Shown here: piece after piece, positions 3,962 through 64,000 of the stretch
Position numbering within the stretch: the stretch's first letter is position 1
Layout of the letters: the number at the start of each line of letters is the position of its first letter
Origin: Candidatus Omnitrophota bacterium
Lineage (GTDB): Bacteria > Omnitrophota > Gorgyraeia > B26-G9 > JBDRCZ01
Length of the DNA stretch: 64,000 bases
Assembly (NCBI GenBank): GCA_043821285.1
Contig: JBDRCZ010000056.1
Span: 792 to 64,791, forward strand
Direction of reading: 5' to 3'
The notes under the pieces: generated by a model
What the model was told of the DNA's origin: nothing
Database searches by the model: none
The model's input: the letters and a program-made list of their open reading frames with translations, nothing else
Program-made: the position numbers and the translations under genes

Positions 3962-3970
3962 AACCTAAAT

Positions 3971-4006
3971 GCAACCACAGATTATACAGATTACGCAGAT
4001 GGTTGT
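3971..4006. repeat. Family A element (aaccacagattatacagattacgcagatggttg)
   Basis: CAACCA...TGGTTG inverted repeat around CAGAT units. Followed by the conserved TTAAAAG...TTTGACAGAACC motif at 4018-4049. Confidence 0.6.
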
Positions 4007-4017
4007 TTTGAAAACAA

Positions 4018-4049
4018 ATTTAAAAGTACCGGTGGTATTTGACAGAACC
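4018..4049 (+). promoter_or_regulatory. Conserved upstream motif TTTAAAAGTACC-N8-TTTGACAGAACC
   Basis: Same motif as 1188-1218 and 40093-40124. RBS gggaggaagg downstream. Confidence 0.4.
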
Positions 4050-4074: not shown

Positions 4075-5316
4075 ATGGCAAAAAAAAGAAATAAGATATA
4101 CATTGTGGATGTAACTAATCGTGACGGGGTGCAGACTTCCCGCATTTGCCTTTCTAAATTACAAAAGACAATGCTCAATATATTTTTAAATGAAATGGGC
4201 ATATTTCAGAGTGAATTTGGATTTCCCGTAACGAAACACGAAAAAAACTATTTGAATGCAAATTTGAAACTGGCGAAGATCGGGGTGATTAATAAAACAC
4301 GTCTCAGCGGCTGGATACGGGCAACAGTTGAGGATGTATTGGCTGCTTTTAAAAATGCGCCTGATCTCCAACATCTTAATTTATCAATATCTACGTCTGA
4401 TCAGATGATTATTCATAAATTTCGGGGTAAATTAGATCATTTATCGGTAATTACGGGAATGGAACATGCCGTGAAGCATGCGATTAAAATGGGGGCAAAG
4501 AGTGTTGGGGTAAATGCGGAAGATGCCTCGCGTACCGATATTAATTATTTAATAAAATTTGCCAAAGCTGCGGAGGCCGCCGGGGCAGAGAGAATTCGTT
4601 ATTGTGATACATTGGGCTATGAAACTCCTTTTAGCATTTATGAACGAATTAAACAGCTTGTAAATAATGTAAAAATTTCCGTAGAAATACATTGCCATAA
4701 TGATTTAGGAATGGCCGTAGCAAATTCTATTGCCGGGGCAAAGGCGGCTATTGATAACGGGGTGGATGCTTATATAAATACCTGTATAAATGGGGTAGGT
4801 GAGAGAGCCGGTAATGCAGATTTAGTCAGCGTGATTCTGGCATTAAAATATGCCGCTGGTTTTAATGATTATACGTTGGATGAAAGGGTAAATTTGAAGG
4901 TTGCCTGGAGGATTTCCAAGTATGCCTCATACGCCTTTGGCGTACCTATTCCGATAAACCAGCCAGGGGTAGGCGCAAATGCATTTGCTCATGAATCAGG
5001 TATCCACGCCGACGGTGCGCTTAAAGACCGCAGGAATTATGAATTATTTGATTATGAAGAATTAGGAAGGGGAGAGCAGGAAATAATTGAAACCGGCAGA
5101 AAAATAACGGCTGGTGAATATAGCGGGATTAAAGGATTTCGTAATGTTTATGAAAAATTACAGATTTCATTTAAAAATGACAAACAGGCCGCAAAGATTT
5201 TAGACTTAGTGCGTTATGCGAACGTTCATAACCAGAAACCGTTGGTTAAGACCGAATTAATGTTTATTGCCAAATATCCTGATATTGCTCAACAAATTTT
5301 TACGATGACGCCATAA
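4075..5316 (+). CDS. HMGL-like 2-isopropylmalate / homocitrate / citramalate synthase family protein (short form lacking the LeuA regulatory domain)
   Basis: DVTNRDGVQT and HxHNDLGMAVANS motifs, GERAGNA. RBS before the ATG at 4075 (ORF open from 4039). Confidence 0.75.
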   Translation: MAKKRNKIYIVDVTNRDGVQTSRICLSKLQKTMLNIFLNEMGIFQSEFGFPVTKHEKNYLNANLKLAKIGVINKTRLSGWIRATVEDVLAAFKNAPDLQHLNLSISTSDQMIIHKFRGKLDHLSVITGMEHAVKHAIKMGAKSVGVNAEDASRTDINYLIKFAKAAEAAGAERIRYCDTLGYETPFSIYERIKQLVNNVKISVEIHCHNDLGMAVANSIAGAKAAIDNGVDAYINTCINGVGERAGNADLVSVILALKYAAGFNDYTLDERVNLKVAWRISKYASYAFGVPIPINQPGVGANAFAHESGIHADGALKDRRNYELFDYEELGRGEQEIIETGRKITAGEYSGIKGFRNVYEKLQISFKNDKQAAKILDLVRYANVHNQKPLVKTELMFIAKYPDIAQQIFTMTP

Positions 5317-5448
5317 ACGGCAAAAAGTGTTAAAAAGTGACAATTGACGAAAACAGAATGACGTGCCAAACAACACGGCGGGCAGGTGAGAAAATAAAAA
5401 TTAACAATGATAGTCAAGGTGATGGAAATTTTTTAGGAGGGGGTTGAG

Positions 5449-7293
5449 ATGAGAAAGGTAATATATTTTCTTTTGACTTTAGGGTTTATTTTTACAAGCA
5501 GCGTTGTATATGGGCAGTCAACAATTATAAAAGAAGTTAAGTCGGATGATTTAGGCACATCTGTTCGGGTATCATTAGTTACAAACAGCTATACAACGGT
5601 AGAATATTATGATATTGCTACTCCTCCGCAGATTGTGATTGATTTTATTGGAAATGTTTTTACAAATTTGCGCGATGCACAAATAATAGATAATGAACCG
5701 ATAAAACAGATTCGTTTTGTCAAAGGAACGGAGACGGCCGGGGATTTGGATGATTCTTATTATGCCGTTGATTTTATAATTATTGACATGGAACAGCCAA
5801 AACCTTATGAATTTTTTCATGGTCAGAATGTTGTAAGCGTTGAAGTAAAAAAGGCAAAACCGCGCAGTAACATAGAAAGAGTTTCAAAATTGCCGGTGTC
5901 AGAAATAACTACACCTGAGATGAGAAAACCCGTAGAGCCAGAACTACTTTTGCCAGTTGAAGAAGAAGCTGTGGGGGGGGCGCCAGCCTTAAGGCAGGAA
6001 AAGACGGAAAACGAGATAACTCTGCCGCTACTGCCGGCAATCGAAGAGCCGGTAGAGGAGTTGCCCAGAGAAGGAATGATCAAAAAGAGCTGGAGTAGTG
6101 TAAGTAGCGGAACAAAATCTATCGGCAGAAATATATGGAGAGGAGCAGCTTCAATCGGCCGGGGAGTAAAAAAAATATTTGCTTTACCTAAAATGGGAAA
6201 AAAAGTTAAGAAAAGAGAGGTTAAACAGGAGAAGGAAGATGGTCATGGATATAAAAATTCTCAGGCCGGCTTAGCAGCAGCAATAGAGGAAAAAAATAAA
6301 GCAGAAGCGTTACTTAAAAAAGCAGTGGATGATTATATGCTTGCACAGGCAGAACTTGGAGAGGTAACAAAAACTCAACACCAGCCGGATGAAAAATTTG
6401 ACATGGTGGAAAAAGAAGCAATGGATGCACAACAGGAACTGGCGGCTGCGGTAGAAGAAGAAAAAAAAGTAAAAGAGGAAGTAGAAAATATCTCTGAGCA
6501 ATATAAGGCAGCAAAGAAAGAATTAAATCTGGCAATATCCAAACAGCTTGATGTGGAAGAATTAGAGAGATTAAAGACTAAGTACGAAAATAAAAAACAG
6601 GAATTCAATGCTGCGATAGCCCAGGCTAAATTAAGTAATAAAAAAGTAAAAGAAAAAACTAATCTGAATAAACAAAAACAGCAAGCATTAAAGTCACAAA
6701 CTAGAGATGACCAGTCTCGATCTGATGCTTTAAAAAAGGCCCGGACAAATTTGGAATTAGCCAAAGATAAAATGGAACGGATGATCGTTGAAGTAAAGAA
6801 ATCGGAAATAAAAGTATCAACAGCAAAAAGGGAATATGGGGCCTGGCAGTTAAGAAAAAGCAAAAAGTCTTTAGCAAATGAATATGTTGAAAAGCCTCAT
6901 TTACCGGAAAAACCAGAGATAACCTGTGAGTCAGCAAGAAATTTGCGCAATAAAGGGTTTGAGGCACAGAGCCGGGGAGATTTGGATCAAGCAGTCCGTT
7001 ACTATCAAGAGGCAATACTTGCGGATTCCACATATCCTGACCCGCATAATGATTTAGGCATTGTTTACGAACAGAAAGGATGGCGAGATCGAGCAAAAGG
7101 AGAATATTTAACCGTATTAAAGATTGCCCCGGATTACATAAAGGCTTATTCCAATTTAGCTCTTTTGTACGAACAGGAAGGCAATATTGAAAAAGCAATA
7201 TATTATTGGCAGGAACGGGTCAGGCTGGGAAATCCTGGAGACAAGTGGACAGAAGTTGCGAGAAAAAGAATGGAAGAGTTAAAAGAAAGGTAA
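5449..7293 (+). CDS. Secreted AMIN-domain / coiled-coil / TPR-repeat protein
   Basis: Signal peptide. AMIN-like N-domain, long K/E-rich coiled coil and C-terminal TPR repeats. Confidence 0.6.
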   Translation: MRKVIYFLLTLGFIFTSSVVYGQSTIIKEVKSDDLGTSVRVSLVTNSYTTVEYYDIATPPQIVIDFIGNVFTNLRDAQIIDNEPIKQIRFVKGTETAGDLDDSYYAVDFIIIDMEQPKPYEFFHGQNVVSVEVKKAKPRSNIERVSKLPVSEITTPEMRKPVEPELLLPVEEEAVGGAPALRQEKTENEITLPLLPAIEEPVEELPREGMIKKSWSSVSSGTKSIGRNIWRGAASIGRGVKKIFALPKMGKKVKKREVKQEKEDGHGYKNSQAGLAAAIEEKNKAEALLKKAVDDYMLAQAELGEVTKTQHQPDEKFDMVEKEAMDAQQELAAAVEEEKKVKEEVENISEQYKAAKKELNLAISKQLDVEELERLKTKYENKKQEFNAAIAQAKLSNKKVKEKTNLNKQKQQALKSQTRDDQSRSDALKKARTNLELAKDKMERMIVEVKKSEIKVSTAKREYGAWQLRKSKKSLANEYVEKPHLPEKPEITCESARNLRNKGFEAQSRGDLDQAVRYYQEAILADSTYPDPHNDLGIVYEQKGWRDRAKGEYLTVLKIAPDYIKAYSNLALLYEQEGNIEKAIYYWQERVRLGNPGDKWTEVARKRMEELKER

Positions 7294-8624: not shown

Positions 8625-8745
8625 AATGCATTGGCGGATCTTCGATGCAGCAAGACGACAGGGTATTACGCTTAGGTGATGCGGCTGCAGCACCGGAAAT
8701 TTTTTTATATAATGAAAACCTGCGGTTTTCAACCTTTCCCTCCAT
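8625..8745 (-). repeat. Composite repeat (family B palindrome tgaaaacctgcggttttca at 8713-8732 plus family C CGAAGATCCGCC module), minus orientation
   Basis: The reverse complement is about 85 percent identical over roughly 120 bp to 57227-57345. Confidence 0.65.
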
Positions 8746-8799
8746 AATGTTACTTGCTGGTAAGACCACAGGAAGTAAACAGGTTCATGTTGAAAGACA

Positions 8800-9411: not shown

Positions 9412-9438
9412 AAGCAGAGAGGTTTTACCGCGATTAAA

Positions 9439-9745
9439 CTTGAGTATTCCCTGTAGCTTGCTACAGGGTGATCTTAGGGATAGTCAAGCTTAAGGAAATT
9501 TTTTAACGTATTAGGAAACAATAAGATTATCAAACTGTGGATAACTTGGGATTTAGGGTATAGTTTGGTATATTTAACTTGGAATTCCCCGCCCCTTGGG
9601 GCGTGGGATGATATAAGAAATTCCTTATCGACGTAGCGAAGCGGAGCTGATCGTGATACCCCGCTGCTTGCGGCGGGGAGAGTTCATTGTTAAGGGAAGG
9701 TTTGAAAACCGTAGGTTTTTAAATGGATAAAAAGATTCCGAAGGA
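9439..9745. repeat. Composite intergenic repeat cluster (hairpin CCCTGTAGCTTGCTACAGGG, GC hairpins, palindrome TTGAAAACCGTAGGTTTTT at 9702-9720)
   Basis: Shares modules with 330-432, 57100-57420 and 63620-63692. Confidence 0.6.
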
Positions 9746-9768
9746 ATTTTTTTATTAACTAAATATTC

Positions 9769-21591: not shown

Positions 21592-21792
21592 TTGATTGCT
21601 CTATCAAGATTATAGGATATTACAGCCGGGTAATCAGACTTTGCAGTATCGGAAATTTTTTTATCTGCTTGAAAACTGTCGTGTTCAAGCTTTCCCTTTT
21701 GAGATTAGAACATTTAATATTAGAAATTATTTAGGATTTAGTGCTTCGAATTTGGAATTTCAAGGCTTTGCTTGCAATCTCTGATTGCATAT

Positions 21793-22923: not shown

Positions 22924-24652
22924 AACGTTAATGCCGACATTAAAAGAGAATCCGAGTGATGCCGAAACAATAAGCCATAAGCTGATGCTTAGAGCAGGGC
23001 TTATCCGGAAGCTTTCCAGCGGGGTGTATTCATATCTGCCGCTGGGATTAAAAGTGCTTAAAAAAGTTGAAAAAATCGTGCGGGAAGAAATGGATAAAGC
23101 CGGGGCATTAGAGGTGCTTTTGCCGGCTTTGCAGCCGGTGGAGCTGTGGCAGCAGACCGGCAGATTTGAAACTTTAGGACAGGATTTGATATCGTTTGTT
23201 GACCGCCATGGCAAAAGAATAGTGCTTGGGCCAACCCATGAAGAAGTAATAACCGCTTTGGTAAAAAACGAGGTGAGTTCCTACAAACAGTTGCCGCTTA
23301 TAATTTACCAGATTCAGACAAAATTCCGGGACGAGGTACGGCCAAGATTTGGAGTTATCCGCTGCCGGGAGTTTATGATGAAAGATGCCTATAGTTTTGA
23401 CACTGATGTTCAGGGATTAGATATAAGTTATAAAAAAATGTATGCCGCCTATTGTGCGATCTTAAAAAGATGCGGATTATCATATATTGCGGTTCAGGCT
23501 GATCCGGGGATTATGGGTGGTGATGAATCAAGCGAGTTTATGGCTGCGGCCGAACACGGAGAAGATATAGTCGTGCATTGTACAAATTGCGGCTATGCGG
23601 CAAGCATTGCTAAAGCAGAATGCCGGGATCCAGTTGCGGTTACATATAAGCCTTATGAATTACTGCCCATGGGAGAAATTGAAACGCCGGGAATTACTTC
23701 CGTAGCTGATGTAAGCACCTTTTTAAAAGTCGAGCTGGATAAATTAATGAAAACAATGCTTTATATTACTAAAGATGAAGAAATAGTTGCGGTGCTTGTT
23801 CGAGGTAATTATGATGTAAATGAAGCAAAATTATGCCGTATTTTAAAAACAAATAATCTCAAAATGGCCGACCGCCAGACAATAGAAAAAATAACTAACG
23901 GAGAAATGGGATTTAGCGGACCGGTCGGACTTAAAAATGTTAAGATTATTGCCGATTTTTCAGTCAAAGACGGCAATAATTTTATTACCGGCGCAAATAA
24001 GAAAGACCAGCATTTGACTAATGTAAATCCATGGCGTGATTTTGATGTTCATGTCTGGGCGGATGTACGTTGTTTTACCGCGCAGGATTTATGTCCAGGT
24101 TGTCAAAGTCAGGTAACCGTCCAGCGGGCAATAGAAGTAGGACATGTATTTAAGCTGGGCACAAAATATACCAGAAGTCTTAATGCCTTTTATCTTGACG
24201 AACAGGGCCGGCAAAACCTGATAATTATGGGATGTTACGGGATTGGCGTAAGCAGAATAATTGCCGCGGTCGTAGAGCAAAATAATGATTGTGAAGGGAT
24301 TATTTGGCCGGAAGAGATTGCCCCGTATCAGGTGGTGATTTTACCGTTGAATATTGACAATAAAGCTTTAAACGATACCGCAATTAAAATTTATAACCAA
24401 CTACTTAAGCTGGGGATTGATGTTTTGATTGATGACCGAAATGAACGTGCCGGGGTTAAATTTAAGGACGCAGATTTATCCGGTATTCCGCTGCAAGTTA
24501 TTATCGGAGAAAATTCACTGGCAAAGAAAAATGTTGAAGTAAAGATAAGAAAAATAAAAGAAAAAATTGTTGTGAAACAGGATTTAGTAATTGAAGAGAT
24601 TTGTAAAATCTTAAAACCACATGACAATTCAAAATTAAAAAACAAAAAGTAA
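22910..24652 (+). CDS. proS: Proline--tRNA ligase
   Basis: Class II aaRS motifs across the full length. Overlaps the ispG end by 14 nt. Confidence 0.9.
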   Translation: MHLSKTLMPTLKENPSDAETISHKLMLRAGLIRKLSSGVYSYLPLGLKVLKKVEKIVREEMDKAGALEVLLPALQPVELWQQTGRFETLGQDLISFVDRHGKRIVLGPTHEEVITALVKNEVSSYKQLPLIIYQIQTKFRDEVRPRFGVIRCREFMMKDAYSFDTDVQGLDISYKKMYAAYCAILKRCGLSYIAVQADPGIMGGDESSEFMAAAEHGEDIVVHCTNCGYAASIAKAECRDPVAVTYKPYELLPMGEIETPGITSVADVSTFLKVELDKLMKTMLYITKDEEIVAVLVRGNYDVNEAKLCRILKTNNLKMADRQTIEKITNGEMGFSGPVGLKNVKIIADFSVKDGNNFITGANKKDQHLTNVNPWRDFDVHVWADVRCFTAQDLCPGCQSQVTVQRAIEVGHVFKLGTKYTRSLNAFYLDEQGRQNLIIMGCYGIGVSRIIAAVVEQNNDCEGIIWPEEIAPYQVVILPLNIDNKALNDTAIKIYNQLLKLGIDVLIDDRNERAGVKFKDADLSGIPLQVIIGENSLAKKNVEVKIRKIKEKIVVKQDLVIEEICKILKPHDNSKLKNKK

Positions 24653-24685
24653 CCACAGATTGCTCAGATTGCACAGATAGTTATT
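24649..24685. repeat. Family A element (aaccacagattgctcagattgcacagatag) starting at the proS stop codon
   Basis: CAGAT 9-mer units. Confidence 0.6.
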
Positions 24686-24706
24686 TTAAAAATAAATGAG
24701 ATATCA

Positions 24707-28422: not shown

Positions 28423-31400
28423 TTGTTTAAGCCCTCCTTTCGTCAAAATTTACTGTACTCTCAAAAAACTTGCCTCTTAAACGCCTCTGCATGCAACGAT
28501 CTCAAAACGAATCAATCCCAGATATGGCGGAAAACTTTGTTTACAAGATTAAAGAACCAAAAATTACCAATGGGCGCGTATATCCTGGAGGCAAATGCTT
28601 CGGGTAAAAAAAGCCGGCAGTTACTTCTGGTAAGTAATGCCGCCTGTGTGTTAAAGACATCACCAAGCCAGGCGCTGGTGTATTTTTGCAATGCTAATGA
28701 CGGAGCGCCGATTGCTGATGCCGTGGTTTGCCTTTGGGAGAGATTTTATTCCAATGGGAATTGGCAGTGGATAGAGCAGAAAAAGAATACGGATAAAAAC
28801 GGCCTTTGTGTGTTTGATTTGAAAAGCGCTGATAACCGCAAAGAAATTTTTGCTGCCGCGGTGCGGGAAAATCAGCAGGCGTTTAGCTTAGGCAGCAGTG
28901 ATAATTACCGCAGGAATGATCTGCTGTGGAAAGTTTACGCGTTTTGCGACCGTCCGGCGTACCGGCCGAATGAAACAGTTCAGTGGAAAATTTTTGCCAG
29001 GGCTTATGACCAAGGGGGATATTCTACGCCGGCAAATAAGAAAATCAAATATCAGATTTATGATCCGCGCAATACAAAGATAAAGGAAGAAATGGTCGGT
29101 TTAAATTCCTTTGGCTCTGCCTGGGGTGAGCTTGAGCTTACAGAAGTCATGCCTTTGGGAGAGTACCGGGTGAATTTTTATAGTGTGGAGACCTTGCCGG
29201 GGGGTAAAAAAGAAGAGTATATTGGCAGTGCCGTGCTATTTCGACTGGAAGAATATAAATTGCCGGAGTTTAAGGTAAGTATCAGTACTCCCCTTGAAAA
29301 CGGCAAAAAGAAGATATTTCAAACCGGCGGCATAGTTGAGGCAAAGATTCAGGCGGACTATTATTTTGGCGGGCCGGTGGCGAATGCTGATGTTGAGGTG
29401 CTTGTTTATCAAAACCCGTTTTATCATTTTTGGTATCCAGAGCGCGATTATCCATGGTATTACAAGGATATGCAGACAAGTTATGAGCAATACCGCAATT
29501 ATCGCGGCGGTCAGATAGTAAAACGCGAGCAGATAAAGACAGATGTTCAGGGCAGGGCAATCGTAAAGTTTCAAAGCCCGCAAAACTCAGGCGGGGATTT
29601 TGAATACCGTATTGAGGCGCGGGTCACGGATTCATCACGCCGGGAGATTATTGCGCAGGACACGGTTAAGGTAACCATGCAGGGATATTATGTGTATCTT
29701 AAAAATAAGCATAATCTGATTAAGCCTCAGGATAAGGTAGAGATAGATATTAAAACCCTGGACGCAAATAACCAGCCGTATTTGGCCCAAGGCACGATAA
29801 AGGTGACCCGGGATTATTGGTTTGAAATCTGGGTTGCACCGGACGGCCGGGAAATAAAGGGCCAGGAGCTGGAACTACTGCGAAAAAAACATGAACTCTT
29901 TCCGCCGCAGACATCCTCCGGCAGTAAAGACTGGCAGTTGAAATTCCGCGGCTATGAGCAGGAGGAGATCTTAACGCGCACAATTAAAACCGACGAGCAG
30001 GGCGAGGCAGAGTTTAGTTTTGTGCCGGAACACGAAGGCTATTACTGTGTTAACTGGTACAGTAAAGATAAGCGAAAAAATCCGATCAATGCTCAGACAA
30101 CTGTCTGGGCCGCGGATAATCAGACAACCGAGCTTGGCTACCGGCATGGAGGTGTTGAGATTATTATAGATAAAGACACATTTAAAAGCGGGCAGACCGC
30201 GCCAATAATGTTAAGTGTGCCGGTAAACGACAGATATGTTTTATTCAGCGTAGAGGCGGATGATTTTTACAGCTATGAGCTTTTGCATTTAAAGGGCACG
30301 GTTAAATTTATTGAACTGCCGATTAAAGAGTCTCATGTGCCGAATATTTTTCTCAGCGCGGTAATGGTCAGTGACCAGCAGATATTTATCGATACAAAGC
30401 AGGTGGTTGTGCCGCCGGTTGAGCATTTTATTGATGTTGCGGTAAACGCGGATAAAGCTCAGTACCAGCCGCAGGAATCCGGCAAGTTTTGGGTAATGAC
30501 AAAAGATCACAAAGGTAATCCTGTATCCTGCGAGTTAGCATTAGGGGTGGTGGATGAGTCTGTATATTATATCCAGTCGGATTACGACCTAGACCCCAGA
30601 GAGTTTTTCTACGGGCAGAAGCGGTCTGCTCATATCCAGACCCAAAGCACATTTAATCAGAAAAGTTATATTTGTCTGGTAAGAGGCGCGAATGAACAGC
30701 TTGTTGACGTGCGGTATAAAGGTAACCGGCAGGATTGGAATGAGGAAGGAGATGTAGGTGGTAAATATTCTGCGGTGTCATTAGATGGTCGTTTAGGTTT
30801 TGATGCCTCTACCCTGAGAGAGGTTTGTAAAAGCGAAGTAGCTGTAGAAGAAATGAGTGGCATTAAAAAATGTATTTCTGCCGGCTCGATGGACTTTTAT
30901 GATGATAAAGCAAAAGAGGATTTTGAGCAAAAACCAGTTATAGACAAAAATGGCATTTTTTCACCTTCACAGGGGGCCTCAGCTGCGGTGCAGGTTAGAA
31001 GTGATTTTCGTTCGACAATATTCTGGCAGCCGGATATAGTTACGGATAAAAACGGCCGCGCAGAGGTTGATGTTAATTTTGCGGATTCTTTAACCGCATG
31101 GAAGGCATGTGCACGGGTCTTAAGCCCGGTTAATCAGTTTGGTATTGCTTACACTTCAGTGCGGACTAAAAAACCTTTGATTGTCCGGCTGCAGGCGCCG
31201 CGCTTTTTTGTTGTTGGGGACATGGCAGCAGTATCCGGTGTGATTAATAATAATACGGATGAGAATCTTACGGTCACGCCGGTTTTAAAGGTTAAGGGTC
31301 TGGTTATCAGCGGGCTCTATTCCGGCGGCAGGGTCGTAAAGGGTGAGCAGGGTCCGGTTAAGGTAAAGGCTAATAGCCAAGAGCGGGTTGACTGGGCAAT

Positions 31401-33036
31401 ATCCGTGCAGGAAGTTGGAACGGCAAAAATACAGGTAACTGCACAAGCTGACAAATACGCAGATGTCATGGAAAGGACATATCCTGTATATGAACACGGC
31501 ATGGAAAAATTTATTGCCAGAGCCGGTAAACTGCGCGCGGATGAGGCTGTCTTAACCCTTGATCTGCCTAAAGAGCGCGGTAAGGGGTCAACGATAATGC
31601 AGGTGCAGCTTAGCCCGAGCATGGCAGTTACCATGCTCGATAGCCTGCCGTATTTGATTGATTATCCTTACGGGTGCGTGGAGCAGACCATGAGCCGGTT
31701 TTTGCCGGCAGCAATTTGTTTAAATACGCTTAAAGATTTAGGACTGGATCCGGATACGGTTATGCGTAAAATTTTCGGCGGTATTGAGCCGGCATATACG
31801 GAAAAGACACACAGTAAAGGAAAACAGGATTTAAATAAATTAAATGACATGATTAAAAAAGGCATGGAGCGTTTATATGATTTTCAGCATTCAGACGGCA
31901 GCTGGGGCTGGTGGAAAGAAGGAGAGAGTGATCATTTTATGAGCGCTTATGTTCTCTGGGGGCTTTCGTTAGCGCATCAGGCGCGGGTGGAGGTAAAAAG
32001 AAATATTATTGAGCGCGGAGCCGCTTATTTAGAAAAAGAGATCGTAGAGGAAGAGGACAATTATGATCTTCAGGCATGGATACTGCACGCATTATCTAAT
32101 TACCGCGCGGTCTTTGATAAAGGCCGGGCTAAGGAATTTGAGCAAAAGGCATTGGATAATCTTTGGAAAAACCGGGACAAGTTAAACGCTTATACCCGGG
32201 CACTGCTGTCCTTGTCCGCGCATAATTTCAAAGACGAAGAAAAGGCACGAATTCTGGTACGCAATCTGGAAAACGGGGTAAAGACAGATGATACCCCGGA
32301 CACTTCAGCGATCCAGCGCGGCAGCCAAAAGTCAGAGGAGGCAGTTATTGGTACCGCACATTGGGGAGAGGATGGTATCTACTGGCGCTGGTCAGACGGC
32401 GGGGTTGAGGCAACCGCGTTTGCTTTAAAGGCGCTGGTGACAATAGACCCTGAGAATAAGCTGATTGAGCCGGTAAGTAACTGGCTGTTAAAAAACCGGC
32501 GCGGCAGTCAGTGGAAAAGTACCCGGGATACAGCGATTGTAATCATGGCCTTTAATGATTATTTAAAACAAAGCGGCGAAAGGATTGAGACGGTAATCAC
32601 GATTGAGGCAAAGAATAATTATGAATACCTTGTGTTTGAGGATTTAAAGCCAGCGGGTTTTGAAGCAGTACAGGTAAAAAGCGGGGAGCCGATGTATGCA
32701 AAAGAGCTAAAATCTGCGGCAGTTGAACGGAGTTTTGGCAATACAGTGAAGAAAAAATCCGCGGTTTTAGAATCTAATTCCTTAACCGGTGTACCGTTAT
32801 CTGGTCAGGAGGATACGGAATATACCGGCCGGACCCGCTGGGTATACCAGGAACTACGCGACCGCAAGACAGCCTTATTTATCGATAAACTGCCGGAAGG
32901 GGTTTGGGAAATACGCTATGAATTAAGGGCAGAGGTTCCGGGCAGGTTTCATGTCCTGCCAATAACCGGGTACGCGATGTATGTGCCGGAAATCCGGGCA
33001 AACGGCCAGGAGATTAGGGTTGAGGTGAGTGAATAA
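28423..33036 (+). CDS. Alpha-2-macroglobulin family protein with intact thioester (CVEQ)
   Basis: MG domains, YPYGCVEQTMSRF thioester motif, C-terminal receptor-binding-like domain. TTG start. No signal peptide detected. Confidence 0.85.
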   Translation: MFKPSFRQNLLYSQKTCLLNASACNDLKTNQSQIWRKTLFTRLKNQKLPMGAYILEANASGKKSRQLLLVSNAACVLKTSPSQALVYFCNANDGAPIADAVVCLWERFYSNGNWQWIEQKKNTDKNGLCVFDLKSADNRKEIFAAAVRENQQAFSLGSSDNYRRNDLLWKVYAFCDRPAYRPNETVQWKIFARAYDQGGYSTPANKKIKYQIYDPRNTKIKEEMVGLNSFGSAWGELELTEVMPLGEYRVNFYSVETLPGGKKEEYIGSAVLFRLEEYKLPEFKVSISTPLENGKKKIFQTGGIVEAKIQADYYFGGPVANADVEVLVYQNPFYHFWYPERDYPWYYKDMQTSYEQYRNYRGGQIVKREQIKTDVQGRAIVKFQSPQNSGGDFEYRIEARVTDSSRREIIAQDTVKVTMQGYYVYLKNKHNLIKPQDKVEIDIKTLDANNQPYLAQGTIKVTRDYWFEIWVAPDGREIKGQELELLRKKHELFPPQTSSGSKDWQLKFRGYEQEEILTRTIKTDEQGEAEFSFVPEHEGYYCVNWYSKDKRKNPINAQTTVWAADNQTTELGYRHGGVEIIIDKDTFKSGQTAPIMLSVPVNDRYVLFSVEADDFYSYELLHLKGTVKFIELPIKESHVPNIFLSAVMVSDQQIFIDTKQVVVPPVEHFIDVAVNADKAQYQPQESGKFWVMTKDHKGNPVSCELALGVVDESVYYIQSDYDLDPREFFYGQKRSAHIQTQSTFNQKSYICLVRGANEQLVDVRYKGNRQDWNEEGDVGGKYSAVSLDGRLGFDASTLREVCKSEVAVEEMSGIKKCISAGSMDFYDDKAKEDFEQKPVIDKNGIFSPSQGASAAVQVRSDFRSTIFWQPDIVTDKNGRAEVDVNFADSLTAWKACARVLSPVNQFGIAYTSVRTKKPLIVRLQAPRFFVVGDMAAVSGVINNNTDENLTVTPVLKVKGLVISGLYSGGRVVKGEQGPVKVKANSQERVDWAISVQEVGTAKIQVTAQADKYADVMERTYPVYEHGMEKFIARAGKLRADEAVLTLDLPKERGKGSTIMQVQLSPSMAVTMLDSLPYLIDYPYGCVEQTMSRFLPAAICLNTLKDLGLDPDTVMRKIFGGIEPAYTEKTHSKGKQDLNKLNDMIKKGMERLYDFQHSDGSWGWWKEGESDHFMSAYVLWGLSLAHQARVEVKRNIIERGAAYLEKEIVEEEDNYDLQAWILHALSNYRAVFDKGRAKEFEQKALDNLWKNRDKLNAYTRALLSLSAHNFKDEEKARILVRNLENGVKTDDTPDTSAIQRGSQKSEEAVIGTAHWGEDGIYWRWSDGGVEATAFALKALVTIDPENKLIEPVSNWLLKNRRGSQWKSTRDTAIVIMAFNDYLKQSGERIETVITIEAKNNYEYLVFEDLKPAGFEAVQVKSGEPMYAKELKSAAVERSFGNTVKKKSAVLESNSLTGVPLSGQEDTEYTGRTRWVYQELRDRKTALFIDKLPEGVWEIRYELRAEVPGRFHVLPITGYAMYVPEIRANGQEIRVEVSE

Positions 33037-36580: not shown

Positions 36581-36620
36581 ACACGCAGATTATTTAGATA
36601 GTTGTTTTGAAAATAAATAA
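36581..36620. repeat. Degenerate family A element (aaaacacgcagattatttagatagttgttttgaaaataaat)
   Basis: Shares the CAGAT units and the gttgttttgaaaa tail with 3991-4010. Confidence 0.5.
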
Positions 36621-39237: not shown

Positions 39238-40053
39238 GTGGGATTAGATCAGGCGCAAATCGAGCGGTATTCAAGGCAGATTATCTTGCCAAATGTTGGC
39301 CGGCGGGGACAGGAAAAAATATTTAAATCAAAAGTGCTGATTATTGGTGCCGGAGGTCTGGGTTCACCTTCTGCCTTGTACCTTGCCTCAGCCGGCGTGG
39401 GGAGTCTGGGTATTGTTGACTCAGACGAGGTAGAGCTTAATAACCTGCATAGACAAGTTTTACATTCCACAAAAACTATCGGCATCGCAAAAGTAAAATC
39501 TGCTAAGCATAGACTTATGTCACTAAATCCTGATGTAAAAACTGTTACTTACAATACCAGAGTTACCGCAGATAATATTTCTAATCTGATTAAGGGTTAT
39601 GATATAATCGTAGATGCATCTGATAATTTCCCCACGCGATATTTAGCAAATGATGTTTGTGTTCTCTCAAAGAAACCATTTTCGCACGGCAGTGTATGCG
39701 AATTTGGCGGGCAGGTAATGACAATTGTCCCGGGGAAAAGTGCCTGTTACCGGTGTTTATTCCCTGAACCCCCGCCACCCGGACGCATGCCCAATAGTCA
39801 GGAAACAGGTATACTTGGTGTGGTTCCGGGTATAATTGGTACAATTCAGGCAAATGAAGTATTAAAATATATTTTAGGTATCGGCAATCTTCTAATTGGC
39901 AGACTGCTGGTGTTTGATGCGCTTAATTCTTCTTTTCGAGAGGTGAAAGTCAAAAGAGATAAAAATTGCATGGTGTGTAGTGAAAAATATCATGATAAGA
40001 AAAAAAAGATAATGCCACGGATTTACACGGATTGGACACGGATAAAAAAATAG
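39238..40053 (+). CDS. moeB: MoeB/ThiF-family E1-like adenylyltransferase
   Basis: GTG start. Rossmann motif IIGAGGLGS and CxxC pair (CYRC). The 3' end of the ORF reads through a family-D repeat (codons MPRIYTDWTRIKK). Confidence 0.8.
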   Translation: MGLDQAQIERYSRQIILPNVGRRGQEKIFKSKVLIIGAGGLGSPSALYLASAGVGSLGIVDSDEVELNNLHRQVLHSTKTIGIAKVKSAKHRLMSLNPDVKTVTYNTRVTADNISNLIKGYDIIVDASDNFPTRYLANDVCVLSKKPFSHGSVCEFGGQVMTIVPGKSACYRCLFPEPPPPGRMPNSQETGILGVVPGIIGTIQANEVLKYILGIGNLLIGRLLVFDALNSSFREVKVKRDKNCMVCSEKYHDKKKKIMPRIYTDWTRIKK

Positions 40054-42562: not shown

Positions 42563-42632
42563 ATATAGCAAGGGAGATTATAGATATTGATTAATTTTGG
42601 ATAGTGTCAAGGCGTTATTACAAAATTAAAAG

Positions 42633-42665
42633 TAACCACAGATTGCACAGATTACGCAGATAGAA
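42633..42665. repeat. Family A element (aaccacagattgcacagattacgcagatag)
   Basis: CAGAT units. Preceded by TTAAAAGT. Confidence 0.6.
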
Positions 42666-42689
42666 CGCTTTAAAACAGAAAAAAGATAT

Positions 42690-42854
42690 AGCCACGGATT
42701 AACACGGATAAAAAAAGGTTAAACGATTTTATTATTAAAATCCGGGTTACATCCGTGTGAATCCGTGGCTGAAAAAAAATACTTACACCACGAATAGCAC
42801 AGATTAACACGAATGGAAAAAAGGTTTATTCGTGACAATTCGTGCAATTGGTGG
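42690..42854. repeat. Family D element with inverted termini AGCCACGGATTAACACGGAT ... ATCCGTGTGAATCCGTGGCT (42690-42770) plus a degenerate tandem copy (42787-42854)
   Basis: Near-identical element at 60083-60178. Confidence 0.65.
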
Positions 42855-43933: not shown

Positions 43934-44052
43934 ATTTATAACAACTGTCTTCAACTAACTGCTGGGAGTACGCAAAATAGCCTACCCCAGCAGGTGAGTT
44001 CGAATGATGAATATGGATTAATAGAAAACTTATAACAAAGTAATGAACCGAA

Positions 44053-44075
44053 CTTGAAAACCTAACGGTTTTCAA
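44053..44075. repeat. Family B palindrome (TTGAAAACCTAACGGTTTTCAA)
   Basis: Perfect 9-bp arms. Confidence 0.6.
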
Positions 44076-44113
44076 ATCGGTTATTTTCACGTTATAGGAA
44101 AATAAATATAAAA

Positions 44114-46636: not shown

Positions 46637-46847
46637 CCACTCTATGTTATAAATAAAAAAACAAATAATCGCACGGCGACGCAGAGACACAGGGGTAAAC
46701 CGCAAAAATTCATCAACCGCGAAATACACTAAAGACACGAAATAGTTAAAAATACTTTGAAGATGAAGAAATTGTTTAAATAAAAACATTTTTCGTGTGT
46801 TTTGTAACTTTCGTGTTAAAAGATAAAAAACAGATAACCAAATGCTG

Positions 46848-53744: not shown

Positions 53745-53893
53745 CCCGCCACAAAGATTGGCGGACAGGGATTAAACTCCCCGCAAAAATATCGCGCAGG
53801 TCCACTAACGTATTCGTGGTGGACATGGTGGGTCATTTAAAGATTGAAAACCGCAGATTTTCATATGACAAGCTGGTTGAGTCATAATATTCC
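53745..53893. repeat. Family C element fused to family B palindrome (TTGAAAACCGCAGATTTTCATATGACAAGCTGG)
   Basis: CCCGCCACAAAG...TTGGCGGACAGGGATTAAACTCC...GGTCATTTAAAG matches 41740-41850. The tail matches 392-428. Confidence 0.65.
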
Positions 53894-53940
53894 TGCGCAT
53901 GTTTAGTTCTGGCTTGCTCAGCTCTTGGGAGGGATGAAAA

Positions 53941-57099: not shown

Positions 57100-57420
57100 T
57101 TCATTTCATTCCCCGCAGCTTGCTGCGATGATATGATTGGAGTTTGGTTTTTTGATACCCGTAGCTTGTTGCGGGGTTACGAAACTTACCAATTCCTTGC
57201 GGTCTTGCCGCAGGGTGAGGGTTTGAGGGAAAGTATGAAAACCGTAGGTTTTCAAACGGATAAAAAATTTCCGGTGCTGCGAAGCAGCATCAGCTTAGTA
57301 TAAAACCCTGTAGTCTTGCTACATCGAAGATCCGCCAATGCCCGCCACTAATACGATGGCGGATCTACGACATTGTGGAGGGGGGATAGTTACGCTTAAG
57401 GAAATTTTTTATAGCAGTAG
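57100..57420. repeat. Composite intergenic repeat cluster (hairpins CCCCGCAGCTTGCTGCG, CCCGTAGCTTGTTGCGGGG, CCTTGCGGTCTTGCCGCAGGG; family B palindrome at 57235-57255; family C module CATCGAAGATCCGCC...GGCGGATCT)
   Basis: Strong similarity to 8625-8745(-), 9439-9735 and 63645-63692. Confidence 0.65.
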
Positions 57421-59995: not shown

Positions 59996-60082
59996 TCTGG
60001 TGGCTCTGTGTGAGAAAAATTTATATCAAAGCGCTGCAGCGAATAAATGGACTTTATGTTAACCTTATAAGCAAAAATATAA

Positions 60083-60178
60083 AGCCACGGATTAACACTG
60101 ATGGAACACAGATAAGAAAATAAGGTTAAACGATTTGATTATTAAAAATCCGTGTTTCATCTCGGTAAATCCGTGGCT
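60083..60178. repeat. Family D element (AAGCCACGGATTAACACTGAT ... AAATCCGTGGCT)
   Basis: About 85 percent identical to 42690-42770, including the internal AAGGTTAAACGATTT motif. Confidence 0.65.
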
Positions 60179-60480
60179 AAAAAATAATAATCAAACGAAC
60201 AAATTGTCATCCCTGACCTTGTTCCGTCACGAAAGCGGCTTATAAGGCAGGTGAGCGCAAAGGTTAAAAATAAAAAAATCAATAATCACACAGAGCCACA
60301 GAGGCGCAGAGAATGACGAAAAAGAAAATTAGTGCAATTTTTTGAATTTTCTTGTAGTGTGTTAGGAAAAGTAGAATATATTCGGAATGGTTTAAGAAGA
60401 AAATCAGTTCGGCTATTTTTGAAGAAGTTTATAATAAAAGTAACTACCTGAAAAGAATAGGATTTCGAGGAGATACCTTA

Positions 60481-61551
60481 ATGAGTGATGCAAAAATACA
60501 AACACTTTGCGGGTTTAGTCGTACTCAAGGCTGTGCATCCAAGATGCGCCGGGCTTTGCTTAAAAAATTAGTTAGTGTTTTGCCCGGAACGATAAAGAAA
60601 AATAAAGACAAAATAATATCTGATTATGATTCATTTGATGATGCGGCTATTTATAAACTAACTGATGAAATTTCCATAGTTTTTACGGTTGATTTTATGA
60701 CACCGGTTACCAATGATCCGGAAAGGTTTGGCCACATTGCCATAGCTAATGCGCTAAGTGACATTTATGCAAAAGGAGCCGCGCCATGTCTTGGCTTAAA
60801 TGTACTTGGCTTTCCTCAAGAAAAAATGGATTTAACAATTGTTGAACGAATTCTAAAAGCTGGCTTTGCTAAGGCTGAAGAAGCAAATGCACATATAGTT
60901 GGCGGACATACGCTAAATATATCTGAATTTATTTATGGTTTGGCGGCAATAGGTTTTGTTAAAAACAATGAGATTATTCTTAACTCTGGAGCATATAAAG
61001 GGGATGTATTGTTACTTACAAAACCACTGGGGACGAACGTAGTATTAACATTAGCAAATAGAGCAGGCGTTGATGTAGGTTCGGATATTCTTGAAGAATG
61101 TCTTGATTCAATGTGCCAGCTAAATATTATACCAGACATGTTAATGAAAGAAGCCAAGATCAGTGCGTGCACGGATATTAGCGGATATGGATTTATCGGC
61201 CATTTAGCACAGATGTTAGAAGCGAGTAAACAGAAAGCAATAATTTATTCTGCCCAAATCCCTGTAATTAAGAAATCTTTAGATTTTTATAATATGGCCT
61301 ATCGTGCTTGTTCGGTAGAAGCAAATAAAGCGGATTATTCAGATTATGTTCAGTTTACTAATTCAGTGTCACCATCTTTAAGAGATTTATTATTCGATGC
61401 CCATACTTCAGGAGGATTACTAATGTCAGTTCCGGAAAAAAATAGCAAAGTACTTTTAGAAAAACTTCAGCAAAATAAATTTATACATGCTGCTATTGTT
61501 GGCAGGGTTATAGGACTTGATGAACAGGAAAGTTTAATCAAAATAGAATAG
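60481..61551 (+). CDS. selD: Selenide, water dikinase (selenophosphate synthetase), Cys-type
   Basis: N-terminal GFSRTQGCASK (Cys at the Sec/Cys position) and AIR-synthase-like fold motifs across the full length. Confidence 0.85.
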   Translation: MSDAKIQTLCGFSRTQGCASKMRRALLKKLVSVLPGTIKKNKDKIISDYDSFDDAAIYKLTDEISIVFTVDFMTPVTNDPERFGHIAIANALSDIYAKGAAPCLGLNVLGFPQEKMDLTIVERILKAGFAKAEEANAHIVGGHTLNISEFIYGLAAIGFVKNNEIILNSGAYKGDVLLLTKPLGTNVVLTLANRAGVDVGSDILEECLDSMCQLNIIPDMLMKEAKISACTDISGYGFIGHLAQMLEASKQKAIIYSAQIPVIKKSLDFYNMAYRACSVEANKADYSDYVQFTNSVSPSLRDLLFDAHTSGGLLMSVPEKNSKVLLEKLQQNKFIHAAIVGRVIGLDEQESLIKIE

Positions 61552-61941
61552 GCTAATTGTTGTATTTGTTTAAAGTTATAAATGAAAAAGCAGATAATCA
61601 CGACAGACGCAGAAACACAGAGAAAAAGAAAGAATAAAAATTAACTAGATTACACAGTTCACGAAGAAATATTATAGAATGAACCCTTCTATACTATTTT
61701 TAACAACTTAACATTATTCACTTTGTGTTTTCTGGTTGATAAAAATTTTTATTTGCTTGCGGATTTTTTATCAAAGTTAAAACATGGCTTTTTTGCTTAC
61801 AAAAATTTTTTTGGGCAAAAAATCTGCGATTGTCCGTAAATATCTGTGATCGAGAAAAATAGATAATATCTTCACTAATCATTATATTGATAGAATTATA
61901 CAAATATGTTATACTAAATAAGGAGATAAAGGGGGTAGTTT

Positions 61942-62136
61942 ATGATGAAGAAAAAAAAACAATATAAGTTCGAACTAATAGATATGAATAAATATAGAGG
62001 TGAATGGATAGCCTTTATAGATGGGAAAATATTTTCCCATGGCAAGGTGCTTAGAAATGTGCTTGAACGAGCTAAAAAAACCGGGAAAGAGCCAATTATA
62101 GATAAAGTTCCACAACAGAATACATTAATAGTATGA
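61942..62136 (+). CDS. small hypothetical protein (64 aa) coupled to the downstream aspartyl protease
   Basis: ATGA overlap with the next gene. RBS aaggaga. Confidence 0.4.
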   Translation: MMKKKKQYKFELIDMNKYRGEWIAFIDGKIFSHGKVLRNVLERAKKTGKEPIIDKVPQQNTLIV

Positions 62137-62552
62137 TAGAATTTGATTATAAAGGATTTGTAAAGACAGACGAGAGTGGAAAGATATTAGGCGTATATTA
62201 TCGCCCGAATGCGATAGTTAAACTAGTTAATGGTGATAATTATATTGTTTCTAATATGCTTATAGACTCAGGAGCAGATGTTAGTGTGATACCAAAAGCT
62301 GAAGGTGAAGCTTTGGGATTCCGAATTGAAAAGGACGAAAAAATCGAAGATGTCAATGGCATAGGCGGACAGATTCCAGTCGTACATCGGGCCATAGAAT
62401 TTAATATAGGCATAGCGGGCATAAAAATAAATATAGCCTGGGCACTGATAAATGATCTTCCCCCAATTATGGGGAGAGAAGGTGTATTTGATACATTCAT
62501 TATAGAATTTCGGCAGAAAGAGAAGAAAGTTAGATTCCATCGTATCAAATAG
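62133..62552 (+). CDS. Retropepsin-like (clan AA) aspartyl protease
   Basis: MLIDSGADVSVIP active-site motif. Paralog of 27975-28328. Confidence 0.7.
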   Translation: MIEFDYKGFVKTDESGKILGVYYRPNAIVKLVNGDNYIVSNMLIDSGADVSVIPKAEGEALGFRIEKDEKIEDVNGIGGQIPVVHRAIEFNIGIAGIKINIAWALINDLPPIMGREGVFDTFIIEFRQKEKKVRFHRIK

Positions 62553-62689
62553 AGAAGTGTTCATGATTAAATAATATTTTCCTTCCTAAAAAATCCTATC
62601 ATAAATTTCCAGGGAGATATAGAAATGAACCTATAATGTGTAAAGTTTCCCTTTTGCCAAGATAGACATTTTATTAGACAAAGACTCTA

Positions 62690-63140
62690 ACTATAACCGA
62701 GGAGGGAAAGGAAAGAGAGGGATACAGACAGTCGGATGGGGTTGACAAGTGGGGAAGTCAAGATATGATAAACTTGACAAAGCGAGAACCCCTGGGTCCA
62801 GACGGGGAGAGGATAAGTTTCCTACCATTCGCAGAACTGGGTAATAGAATAATGGACACTCAAACCTAAGCATGAATCAAACTGAGGTAATGGAGACAGA
62901 TAGTTAAGGTTAGATGTAGTCTGTATCGGGAACTGAGGGAAGGATTCATGTAAACTTGTTGGTATCTGAACTTGAAGCCGTACTGTGGAAAAACCCGACG
63001 TACGGAATTTTAGCGGGGACTTTGGAAACGTAGATAATGGTGAAATTAGGAACCCACCGCACAATCGAAAGGGTGCGTGATTTGGAAGCTCTTCACTTAA
63101 TATGCTGTGCGCCAGAGTTCTACCCGACAAGAACACAGAG
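62690..63140 (+). ncRNA. Candidate structured non-coding RNA (GC-rich, ORF-free). Contains a group-II-intron domain-V-like hairpin at 62974-63010
   Basis: No plus-strand ORF. Local GC is well above the surroundings. Multiple stem-loops, e.g. GAAGCCGTAC...GTACGG. Only low-complexity spurious ORFs on the minus strand. Confidence 0.35.
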
Positions 63141-63217
63141 CAGGAATAAAGCTATTCAGAGATTTTTTCTGTGAACTTTGTGTTCTCTGTGGTTAAAATC
63201 TATTTGATTATTGTTAA

Positions 63218-63445
63218 TTACGACACAGCCTGAAAGCGATATCCTTTCAAATCAATGATCGGTTATTCAAAGAGGCTAAGGAACTTATTCACAAGACGCA
63301 TGTTCCTAAAAACTCCTATATCAATGATGCCCTTAAGTATTACAATCGACTGATTAGAAGAAAGCTCCTAAAACAGCGTTACCAGAAAGAATCAGCATTA
63401 GTAGTTGAACATTCGTTGCAGATTAATCGGGAATTCCAATGTTAA
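63218..63445 (+). pseudogene. VapB/ribbon-helix-helix-like antitoxin remnant lacking a canonical start codon
   Basis: Translation SFQINDRLFKEAKELIHKTHVPKNSYINDALKYYNRLIRRKLLKQ matches the RHH antitoxin pattern. No ATG/GTG/TTG in frame after the upstream stop. No toxin partner. Confidence 0.3.
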
Positions 63446-63644
63446 AAAACTAAAGAAGTGTTTAAATTTAATTCTGGATTGATTAAAAAAGGGAGAACTG
63501 GAAAAGGGGTTTATTATATATTAGATCCTGTTTATAGGGGACATAAGGGGACATTCTACTATATACAAATTGAGCCATAATTTTTCTTTAGGTTATTTTG
63601 AACTTGATTATTCTCTTTATCTTGCTAAAGGGTGAATTTTAGAA

Positions 63645-63692
63645 GGAAAGCTTGAAAACCTACGGTTTTCAAATGGATAAAAAATTTCCGGT
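63645..63692. repeat. Family B module (GGAAAGCTTGAAAACCTACGGTTTTCAAATGGATAAAAAATTTCCGG)
   Basis: Near-identical to 57227-57274 and 9695-9734. Confidence 0.7.
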
Positions 63693-63707: not shown

Positions 63708-64000
63708 ATGAAATCTAATAATCGTCACAATCTATGCATACTTATAATCATTATCGGAATTTTTCTTTTCGTTCCTAATGCTATTTTTGCACAAGAATGG
63801 CAGTTTGTAAAAAGTGGTAAGGAATTTGGCATTAGTGGGATGGCATTGATTGAACAAAATGACGATCACCTTTCTTTTCTGGTCAACCACGACAGTAAGA
63901 AAGAAAATGATATTCGTTTGGCTATTGTTACGATTGATACTAATAACAAGATTCAGTATATTCCTTTAAACTGGCCCGAAGGTATAGATTTACCAGAGGA
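63708..64000 (+). CDS. hypothetical secreted protein, N-terminal part (runs off the window end)
   Basis: ATG with RBS aaggaaag. Signal peptide LCILIIIIGIFLFVPNAIFA. Confidence 0.45.
   Translation, partial: MKSNNRHNLCILIIIIGIFLFVPNAIFAQEWQFVKSGKEFGISGMALIEQNDDHLSFLVNHDSKKENDIRLAIVTIDTNNKIQYIPLNWPEGIDLPE

Follow-up and report, generated by a model that had tools for sequence, protein, structure and literature searches.

A probable 5′-truncated relic of an ORF-less group II intron in a variable region of a Candidatus Omnitrophota genome

Genomic setting of the element

The stretch of DNA analysed here (64,000 nucleotides, hereafter the window) comes from a metagenome-assembled genome (MAG) of Candidatus Omnitrophota, and the element considered below lies close to its end, surrounded by the following genes and features:

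60481-61551: selD, whose product SelD is identical to NCBI MFH1777236.1
61942-62552, + strand: overlapping two-gene cassette of a DUF5678 protein (64 aa) and a retropepsin-like aspartyl protease (139 aa; 62133-62552, identical to NCBI MFH1777238.1), upstream of the element
62628-62664: degenerate copy, with 72-75% similarity, of an intergenic repeat module
about 63215-63442, + strand: RHH/CopG-like reading frame (KAISFQINDRLFKEAKELIHK...), 87 nt downstream of the intron fragment
63708: start of a secreted-protein gene, downstream of the RHH-like frame

The RHH/CopG-like frame has no ATG, GTG or TTG start (CTG or ATA occupies the expected start position) and no Pfam match, so that it is either a pseudogene or a gene with an unusual start. 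In the SelD relatives L002-L010 (62-64% identity) the region of the element is absent, and in the closest of them (L002-L005) the homolog of the gene starting at 63708 is found between EamA and SelD, whereas here it lies downstream of SelD and the intervening island. Since the downstream neighbourhood differs in this way, the region from 61.6 to 63.7 kb is a rearranged, variable island. In addition, the DUF5678 and aspartyl-protease cassette recurs in other metagenomes (L011-L017, 68-81% protein identity) in unrelated contexts and therefore behaves like a mobile toxin-antitoxin-like pair; these copies lack the region of the element, and their DNA homology to the window ends at 62528. Because the cassette homology stops there and the backbone of the relatives differs, the region belongs neither to the backbone nor to the cassette. 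The gap that holds the element, between selD and a rearranged neighbour gene, is thus variable and rich in mobile elements. A SelD search of genome contigs returned a distant FCPU426 sequence as its sole match, and blastn of this part of the window against phages and plasmids returned none. The element is single-copy within the window and has no convincing terminal inverted repeats or target duplications around it; searches for tRNA, tmRNA, tandem repeats and CRISPR-like arrays gave nothing relevant to it. Note that the window as a whole is free of tRNA genes and matches no Rfam family at gathering score, that nearly all of its long ORFs are on the + strand, and that an ORF of 1537 aa occupies 28423-33036.

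Composition and coding capacity

A preliminary description, made from the sequence of the window, had singled out positions 62690-63140 as a GC-rich, ORF-free segment with many stem-loops, one of them resembling domain V (D5) of group II introns, and had read it as either an ORF-less intron relic or an unrelated large ncRNA. The rise in GC content is real though modest, with 45.5% GC (and 62% purine) in the interval against 38% GC in the whole window, and with 200-nt windows across 62600-63200 giving 41-47% where those of the flanking intergenic DNA give 25-33%. All + strand ORFs of the interval have 45 aa or less, and the two minus-strand ORFs (104 and 60 aa, rich in Ser, Pro, Leu and Phe) are indeed artefacts of a pyrimidine-rich strand.

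A pseudogene or a patch that is GC-rich by chance, instead of an RNA element, would agree with the thermodynamic folding of 62680-63180, which was uninformative (MFE z-scores of -0.01 on the + strand and +0.05 on the - strand), and with the lack of an Rfam match. However, all six reading frames are broken, a concatenated six-frame pseudo-protein query found no homolog among 5.8 billion proteins at E<=10, and the 104-aa ORF has no Pfam match, so that a pseudogene was ruled out; given also that the interval is significantly homologous to group II introns in both nucleotide sequence and structure, as set out below, the chance that the interval is not an RNA element is close to nil. As for the many stem-loops, they find no support in folding energy, but the comparative data do reveal conserved helices.

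Relatives of the element include full-length ORF-less introns

A pattern taken from the D5-like hairpin (GCCGTACNNNGGAAAAACCNNNNGTACGG, with 22 specified bases) was scanned against JGI metagenome contigs and retrieved 10 loci (L018-L027) from soil, peat and permafrost, with 53-62% GC, while viral contigs scanned with D5 and D5-D6 patterns gave 0 matches. In all 10 loci the homology extends beyond the pattern, through the core UGAAGCCGUACUGGGGAAAAACCCGCCGUACGGAAUUUUAGAGGGGG...GGAAAC to a common end CUAC(C/U)CGAC, which carries one or two substitutions in some copies; the homology stops at this terminus, and the sequences downstream of it are unrelated among the relatives.

Five of the copies are full-length (820-860 nt), one each in L022, L026 and L027 and a pair in L024. 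This pair represents a single insertion inside a 1.2-kb tandem duplication (96.9% identity, including 88 nt of flank), so the five copies were counted as four independent insertion sites. All of them begin with GUGCAG, in agreement with the consensus GUGYG at 4 of its 5 positions, and their first 170-300 nt match the Rfam families group-II-D1D4-4 and -6 (RF02003, RF02005) with 66.5, 66.1, 60.7 and 56.9 bits in L022, L024 and L027 and with 47 bits in L026, for a gathering score of 49. No protein domain was found by Pfam in their stop-free stretches. Recognition of the target by group II introns is defined by the EBS1-IBS1 interaction, and here the six nucleotides preceding GUGCAG pair at 6 of 6 positions with a loop located at the same alignment position, although the four insertion sites have different sequences (site/loop: AUCCUA/UAGGAU, GCGGGC/GUCCGC, UUUAGC/GCUAAA and GUAUCG/CGGUAC). 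At the other end, the full-length copies carry a D5-like hairpin and a long domain VI (D6) in which only one A is bulged, at -7, and they finish with ...GAC. [quoted passage not shown]

The full-length relatives adjoin other introns, including an RT-encoding one in L024. This locus (motif-oriented coordinates 293-2430 and 4190-5884) holds, downstream of the duplication, a separate canonical group II intron with an RT ORF, a GUGCG start and a D1D4-6 match of 142.7 bits. Introns cluster here, and the locus might supply a trans-acting intron-encoded protein (IEP). Partial copies also exist: L025 is 5′-truncated and begins at profile position 251, L019 is cut by an IS-like element, and a 5′-truncated, unannotated copy spanning profile 448-818 is carried by four conjugative plasmids of Bradyrhizobium (L028, NZ_CP094524.1 81771-82149, and three sister plasmids), with 87% identity to L024.

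Homology and architecture of the window copy

An nhmmer profile built from the five full-length relatives matched the window at 62968-63128 (profile 709-815, E 1.3e-15) and, marginally, at 62731-62802 (profile 473-548). Both matches are collinear and their spacing is similar, with 166 nt in the window against 161 profile positions, and nothing else in the 64 kb matches the profile. A covariance model (CM) of the upstream hairpin, built from eight relatives with the window left out, returned a single match in the 64 kb on both strands, at 62722-62802 (35.6 bits, E 5.5e-6), in which every pair is standard, without any non-canonical one. When aligned by MAFFT with the eight relatives, window positions 62676-63129 correspond to the last ~395 profile positions. 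This homology supports the reading of the interval as an ORF-less intron relic and excludes an unrelated large ncRNA, and the element that it delimits nearly coincides with the interval first singled out. The parts of the element are as follows, in RNA letters:

62680-63128, + strand: whole element, ~450 nt, most probably a 5′-truncated ORF-less group II intron, corresponding to profile ~425-818 of ~820; its 5′ limit is approximate (62665-62692)
62680-62737, + strand: putative remnant of the 3′ end of domain I, with 6 of 10 relative-invariant positions kept (MAFFT alignment columns 1-76)
62738-62792, + strand: long hairpin, probably domain II, within the CM match, with outer helix GGGGUU/AACCCC and inner helix GUCAAG/CUUGAC
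62793-62973, + strand: stretch collinear with J2/3, domain III and domain IV, with spacing as in the relatives and poor alignment
62976-63007, + strand: domain V, with 24 of 25 relative-invariant positions kept
63013-63125, + strand: domain VI, long form of 113 nt, with 12 of 13 basal pairs kept
63120-63128, + strand: conserved 3′ terminus CUACCCGAC, placing the 3′ boundary between 63128 and 63129

The assignment of 62680-62737 to domain I is suggested by the full-length alignment. This part contains a UAUAAC motif (62692-62698) and CGGAUG (62732-62737), which in the relatives is the 3′ strand pairing with AUYC near the 5′ end of the intron. For 62793-62973 (domains III-IV), alignment and folding gave no reliable consensus; a D4-like stem-loop (62940-62973, AAG..UUCA/UGAA..CUU) abuts D5, and domain IV encodes no RT or maturase.

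The architecture attributed to the D5-like hairpin (AGC triad, helix of ~6 bp, 2-nt bulge of the 3′ strand and upper helix) is present at 62976-63007, so that the hairpin initially placed at 62974-63010 stands with a corrected end, at 62974-63007. Indeed, AGC is at 62976-62978, the lower helix pairs CCGUAC (62978-62983) with GUACGG (63000-63005), the bulge is AC (62998-62999), the upper helix joins U, G, a bulged U, G and G to CCCG under an AAAAA loop (62989-62993), and the triad's AG stands opposite AA (63006-63007). Each of the 10 D5 pairs is standard throughout the 9 sequences, the one at alignment columns 401:414 being U-G, U-A or C-G. In D6, the branch-point-like A63122 is bulged at -7 and the element finishes with the ...GAC terminus. 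Across the family 6 of the 13 basal pairs of D6 show double changes, its sole mismatch in the window is C63014 x C63124, and the inner part of D6 resembles the subgroup formed by L022, L023 and L025.

Structural conservation in an AT-rich genome

Across the family alignment, a manual structure of 39 pairs (domain-II-like hairpin, D5 and base of D6) has 96% of its cells paired, and 15 of the 39 pairs changed on both sides; in the control, where the 3′ partners were slid by 1-3 columns, 33-50% of the cells remained paired. The window keeps 36 of the 39 conserved pairs, and among the three lost ones two are alignment gaps at a shorter helix tip, the D6 mismatch noted above being the only real one. 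Likewise, 43 of 44 invariant positions of D5, J5/6 and D6 are kept, and D5, D6 and the domain-II-like hairpin are preserved in the window as well as in the full-length relatives. In a genome with 38% GC, a fragment long dead would not be expected to be so intact, which allows for some constraint.

The helices are preserved with a different base composition, since, of the 39 scored pairs, the relatives have 26-29 as G-C and the window only 21. As an example, both helices of the domain-II-like hairpin differ from the relatives through compensatory changes (GGGGUU/AACCCC in place of GGGGCC/GGCCCC and GUCAAG/CUUGAC in place of ACCGGG/CCCGGU), and another helix has ACUUUGG/CCAGAGU in place of GGAUGAUGG/CCAUCGUCC. 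These compensatory replacements of G-C by A-U or G-U suggest that the lineage has been under structural selection in AT-rich hosts, and the parent of the window copy would thus belong to an active intron lineage that has long resided in such hosts.

Atypical domains V and VI and detection by Rfam

The Rfam search that had been proposed alongside the intron reading did not bring the expected result, as no Intron_gpII or D1D4 match was obtained in the window. At E<=10, the searches of 62300-63500, 62950-63140 and 61400-62720 yielded only chance matches of snoRNA, miRNA and preQ1 type. RF00029 (Intron_gpII, gathering score 40 bits) had no match at E<=10 on window 62950-63140 or on L026 1120-1260, in searches of D5-D6 on 141-191 nt, and none at E<=1 on any relative; the D1D4-4 and -6 models (gathering score 49 bits) gave no window match either at gathering score or at E<=10. 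This outcome is due to the atypical D5-D6 of the lineage and not to an error of the intron reading. Indeed, the D5 of the lineage shares AGCCGUA...CGUACGG with the canonical D5 of RF00029 and departs from it in that the AG of the triad faces AA (CA in L020 and L027), with no alternative pairing for this AG that is consistent across subgroups, and in that the loop is AAAAA and not GNRA. The upper helix has 4 bp and a 1-nt bulge with U-G, U-A or C-G as closing pair, the bulge (AC in the window) is CC, CG or CU in the relatives, and D6 measures 70-130 nt. As regards RF02003 and RF02005, the relatives match above or near gathering score through their 5′ domain I, the very D1D4 region that is absent from the window.

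A published census of ORF-less introns finds D5-D6 by means of Rfam Intron_gpII, a model recovering 98% of the introns of a reference database (PMC8919778). Since the present lineage escapes this model, ORF-less introns of such a kind would be under-counted in censuses. The string of its D5 was absent from the searched literature, which also contained no study of group II introns in Omnitrophota, both terms occurring together in passing mentions only.

Loss of the 5′ half and its possible explanations

Everything located 5′ of profile position ~425 is gone from the window copy. The loss takes in the 5′ splice site (GUGCAG in the relatives), the EBS1 loop (profile ~290) and the D1D4-type region, with ~420 nt of domain I missing. 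So long a part would not fit upstream, where the protease gene runs to 62552 and a degenerate host repeat occupies 62628-62664, and no 5′ half was detected elsewhere, neither by nhmmer nor by Rfam at gathering score over the 64 kb, nor by Rfam at E<=10 over 61400-63500. With its 5′ end gone the copy has no GUGYG boundary, and with the corresponding part absent it has no EBS1. Lacking its 5′ splice site, EBS1 and the bulk of domain I, the window copy cannot recognise exons or self-splice, and would be expected from its sequence to be inactive in self-splicing and branching. On the 3′ side, no exon ORF follows 63128, since the three frames reach stops after 6, 14 and 21 codons, and no exon ORF therefore depends on splicing; the idea of a trans-spliced exon was rejected on this ground. 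Altogether, we consider it highly probable that 62680-63128 (with the approximate 5′ limit given above) is a 5′-truncated, non-autonomous, splicing-incompetent relic of an ORF-less group II intron.

Could the 3′ half nevertheless be functional, either as the D2-D6 piece of a trans-splicing intron or as a domesticated D5-D6 module acting in trans? The preserved helices and invariant core positions would fit such a role, and so would the second solitary 3′ half, on the Bradyrhizobium plasmids, whose start at profile 448 falls within ~25 nt of that of the window copy (~425) and could hint at a discrete 3′ module (n=2). A match of 11 out of 12 to a sigma-70-type promoter (TTGACA-16-TATGAT, 62742-62769, + strand) might also be invoked; however, its hexamers are inside the conserved domain-II-like hairpin, which a promoter would cut, and the match is probably a by-product of the AT-adapted sequence of the helix. 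Moreover, the missing exon and the missing 5′ half within 64 kb do not suit a trans-splicing piece, the truncation points differ in other copies, and natural trans-splicing group II introns are essentially organellar (PMC4424553). A functional 3′ half is consequently held to be unlikely.

The truncation could also have been produced by the assembler, which would have joined the 3′ half of a full-length intron to unrelated sequence at a repeat. The source is indeed a MAG contig, and the degenerate copy of a genome-wide repeat just upstream (62628-62664) is the type of sequence prone to mis-joins, but its 72-75% similarity makes it poor material for this purpose. In addition, the flanking genes are intact, the upstream cassette ends normally, and bacterial introns occur most often as truncated copies (PMC4424553), all of which makes an assembly artefact very improbable.

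A complete miniaturised intron of ~490 nt, beginning at a GUGUA pentamer (62637) found 337 nt upstream of D5 and having a drastically reduced domain I, would recall the very small, degenerate group II/III introns known in Euglena plastids (PMC4424553). Yet the collinear alignment to profile ~425-818 leaves less than 60 nt for the whole of domain I, nothing resembling an EBS1 loop or a D1 signal was found, and 62628-62664, where the pentamer lies, belongs to the host repeat family. We regard such a miniature intron as extremely unlikely.

Origin of the relic and comparison with known introns

Target-primed reverse transcription begins at the 3′ end, so that a retained 3′ end is what would be expected from it. 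The 5′-truncated relic could then stem from a retromobility event in trans whose reverse transcription, primed at the 3′ end, stopped short, or from a later deletion or rearrangement in the island. The identity of the D5-D6 core is 72-81% between the window and the relatives, and 78-82% between two pairs of relatives across subgroups. Because the divergence of the window copy from the relatives is no greater than that between their subgroups, the truncation would be recent. With intact D5 and D6 and a recent truncation, a full-length parent may be present in this or a related genome.

Truncated or inactivated copies form the majority of bacterial introns, and ORF-less bacterial introns are considered rare (PMC4424553). 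Compared with the truncated bacterial group II copies compiled by Dai & Zimmerly 2002 (PMC4424553), the window copy is likewise partial, located outside housekeeping genes and among mobile DNA, and likewise lacks splicing parts with its 3′ end retained; it differs in that its parent lineage is ORF-less and has atypical D5 and D6. The window element itself is thus an ordinary genomic fossil of a known kind of mobile ribozyme.

ORF-less introns can be mobilised or spliced in trans by the IEPs of related introns, as in Thermosynechococcus elongatus (PMC2882425) and for C.te.I1 of Clostridium tetani (PMC3919590). The full-length relatives (~820-860 nt) are similar to these in the lack of an ORF, in the retargeted EBS1 and in the presence of adjoining introns. 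Unlike them, they have a D5 without A-U or G-U triad partners and without a GNRA loop, a D6 of 70-130 nt, a 5′ GUGCA instead of GUGYG, and are invisible to Rfam Intron_gpII. Another point of comparison is given by the HYER ribozymes (Liu et al. Science 2024, via PMC12990946), which are presented there as ORF-less group IIC derivatives with hydrolytic endonuclease activity and a 6-nt target recognition site, HYER1 having 637 nt. On this account HYERs and the present relatives are alike as protein-less group II derivatives and stand-alone bacterial RNAs. By description only, the relatives differ from HYERs in being larger, in matching D1D4-4/-6 and in keeping the branch-point A of D6, and the window copy in lacking the entire target-recognition part.

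From sequence comparison, there is a limited possibility, put forward tentatively, that the window copy and its soil and Bradyrhizobium relatives represent an undescribed protein-less lineage with a remodelled D5 and an enlarged D6, still active and mobile, which would have spread from Alphaproteobacteria-like hosts to AT-rich Omnitrophota and been missed by pipelines based on RF00029. That this lineage is new as a class is plausible, though less likely than not. Such a lineage could serve to test which features of D5 are truly needed for catalysis and docking, and it adds to the protein-free intron ribozymes, a kind now exploited as HYER nucleases. At the sequence level, the window copy is a first pointer to group II introns in Omnitrophota, and suggests a full-length, AT-adapted copy in this or a related genome.

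Other repeats of the window

The intergenic repeat module of which 62628-62664 is a degenerate copy occurs in the window at 338-443, 8628-8747, 9434-9752, 21642-21701, 44023-44095, 53839-53894, 57203-57341 and 63598-63692. A perfect hairpin (TTGAAAACC-NNN-GGTTTTCAA) forms its core, flanked by conserved GGGAAAG... and ...GGATAAAAAATTTCCGG. The module is genome-specific and has no Rfam match. Its intergenic copies point either way and lie upstream as well as downstream of genes, and it may act as a terminator or be a REP-like element.

Intergenic clusters of direct heptamer-like repeats (CACAGAT, CACGGAT, CACAGAG, GCAGAT) were also observed at 1095-1161, 3953-4019, 24631-24697, 36586-36618, 40000-40045, 42614-42788, 46646-46692, 60070-60196 and 60263-60309. 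These repeats sometimes form inverted pairs (60083-60113 and 60148-60178), and the clusters look like arrays of putative protein-binding sites.
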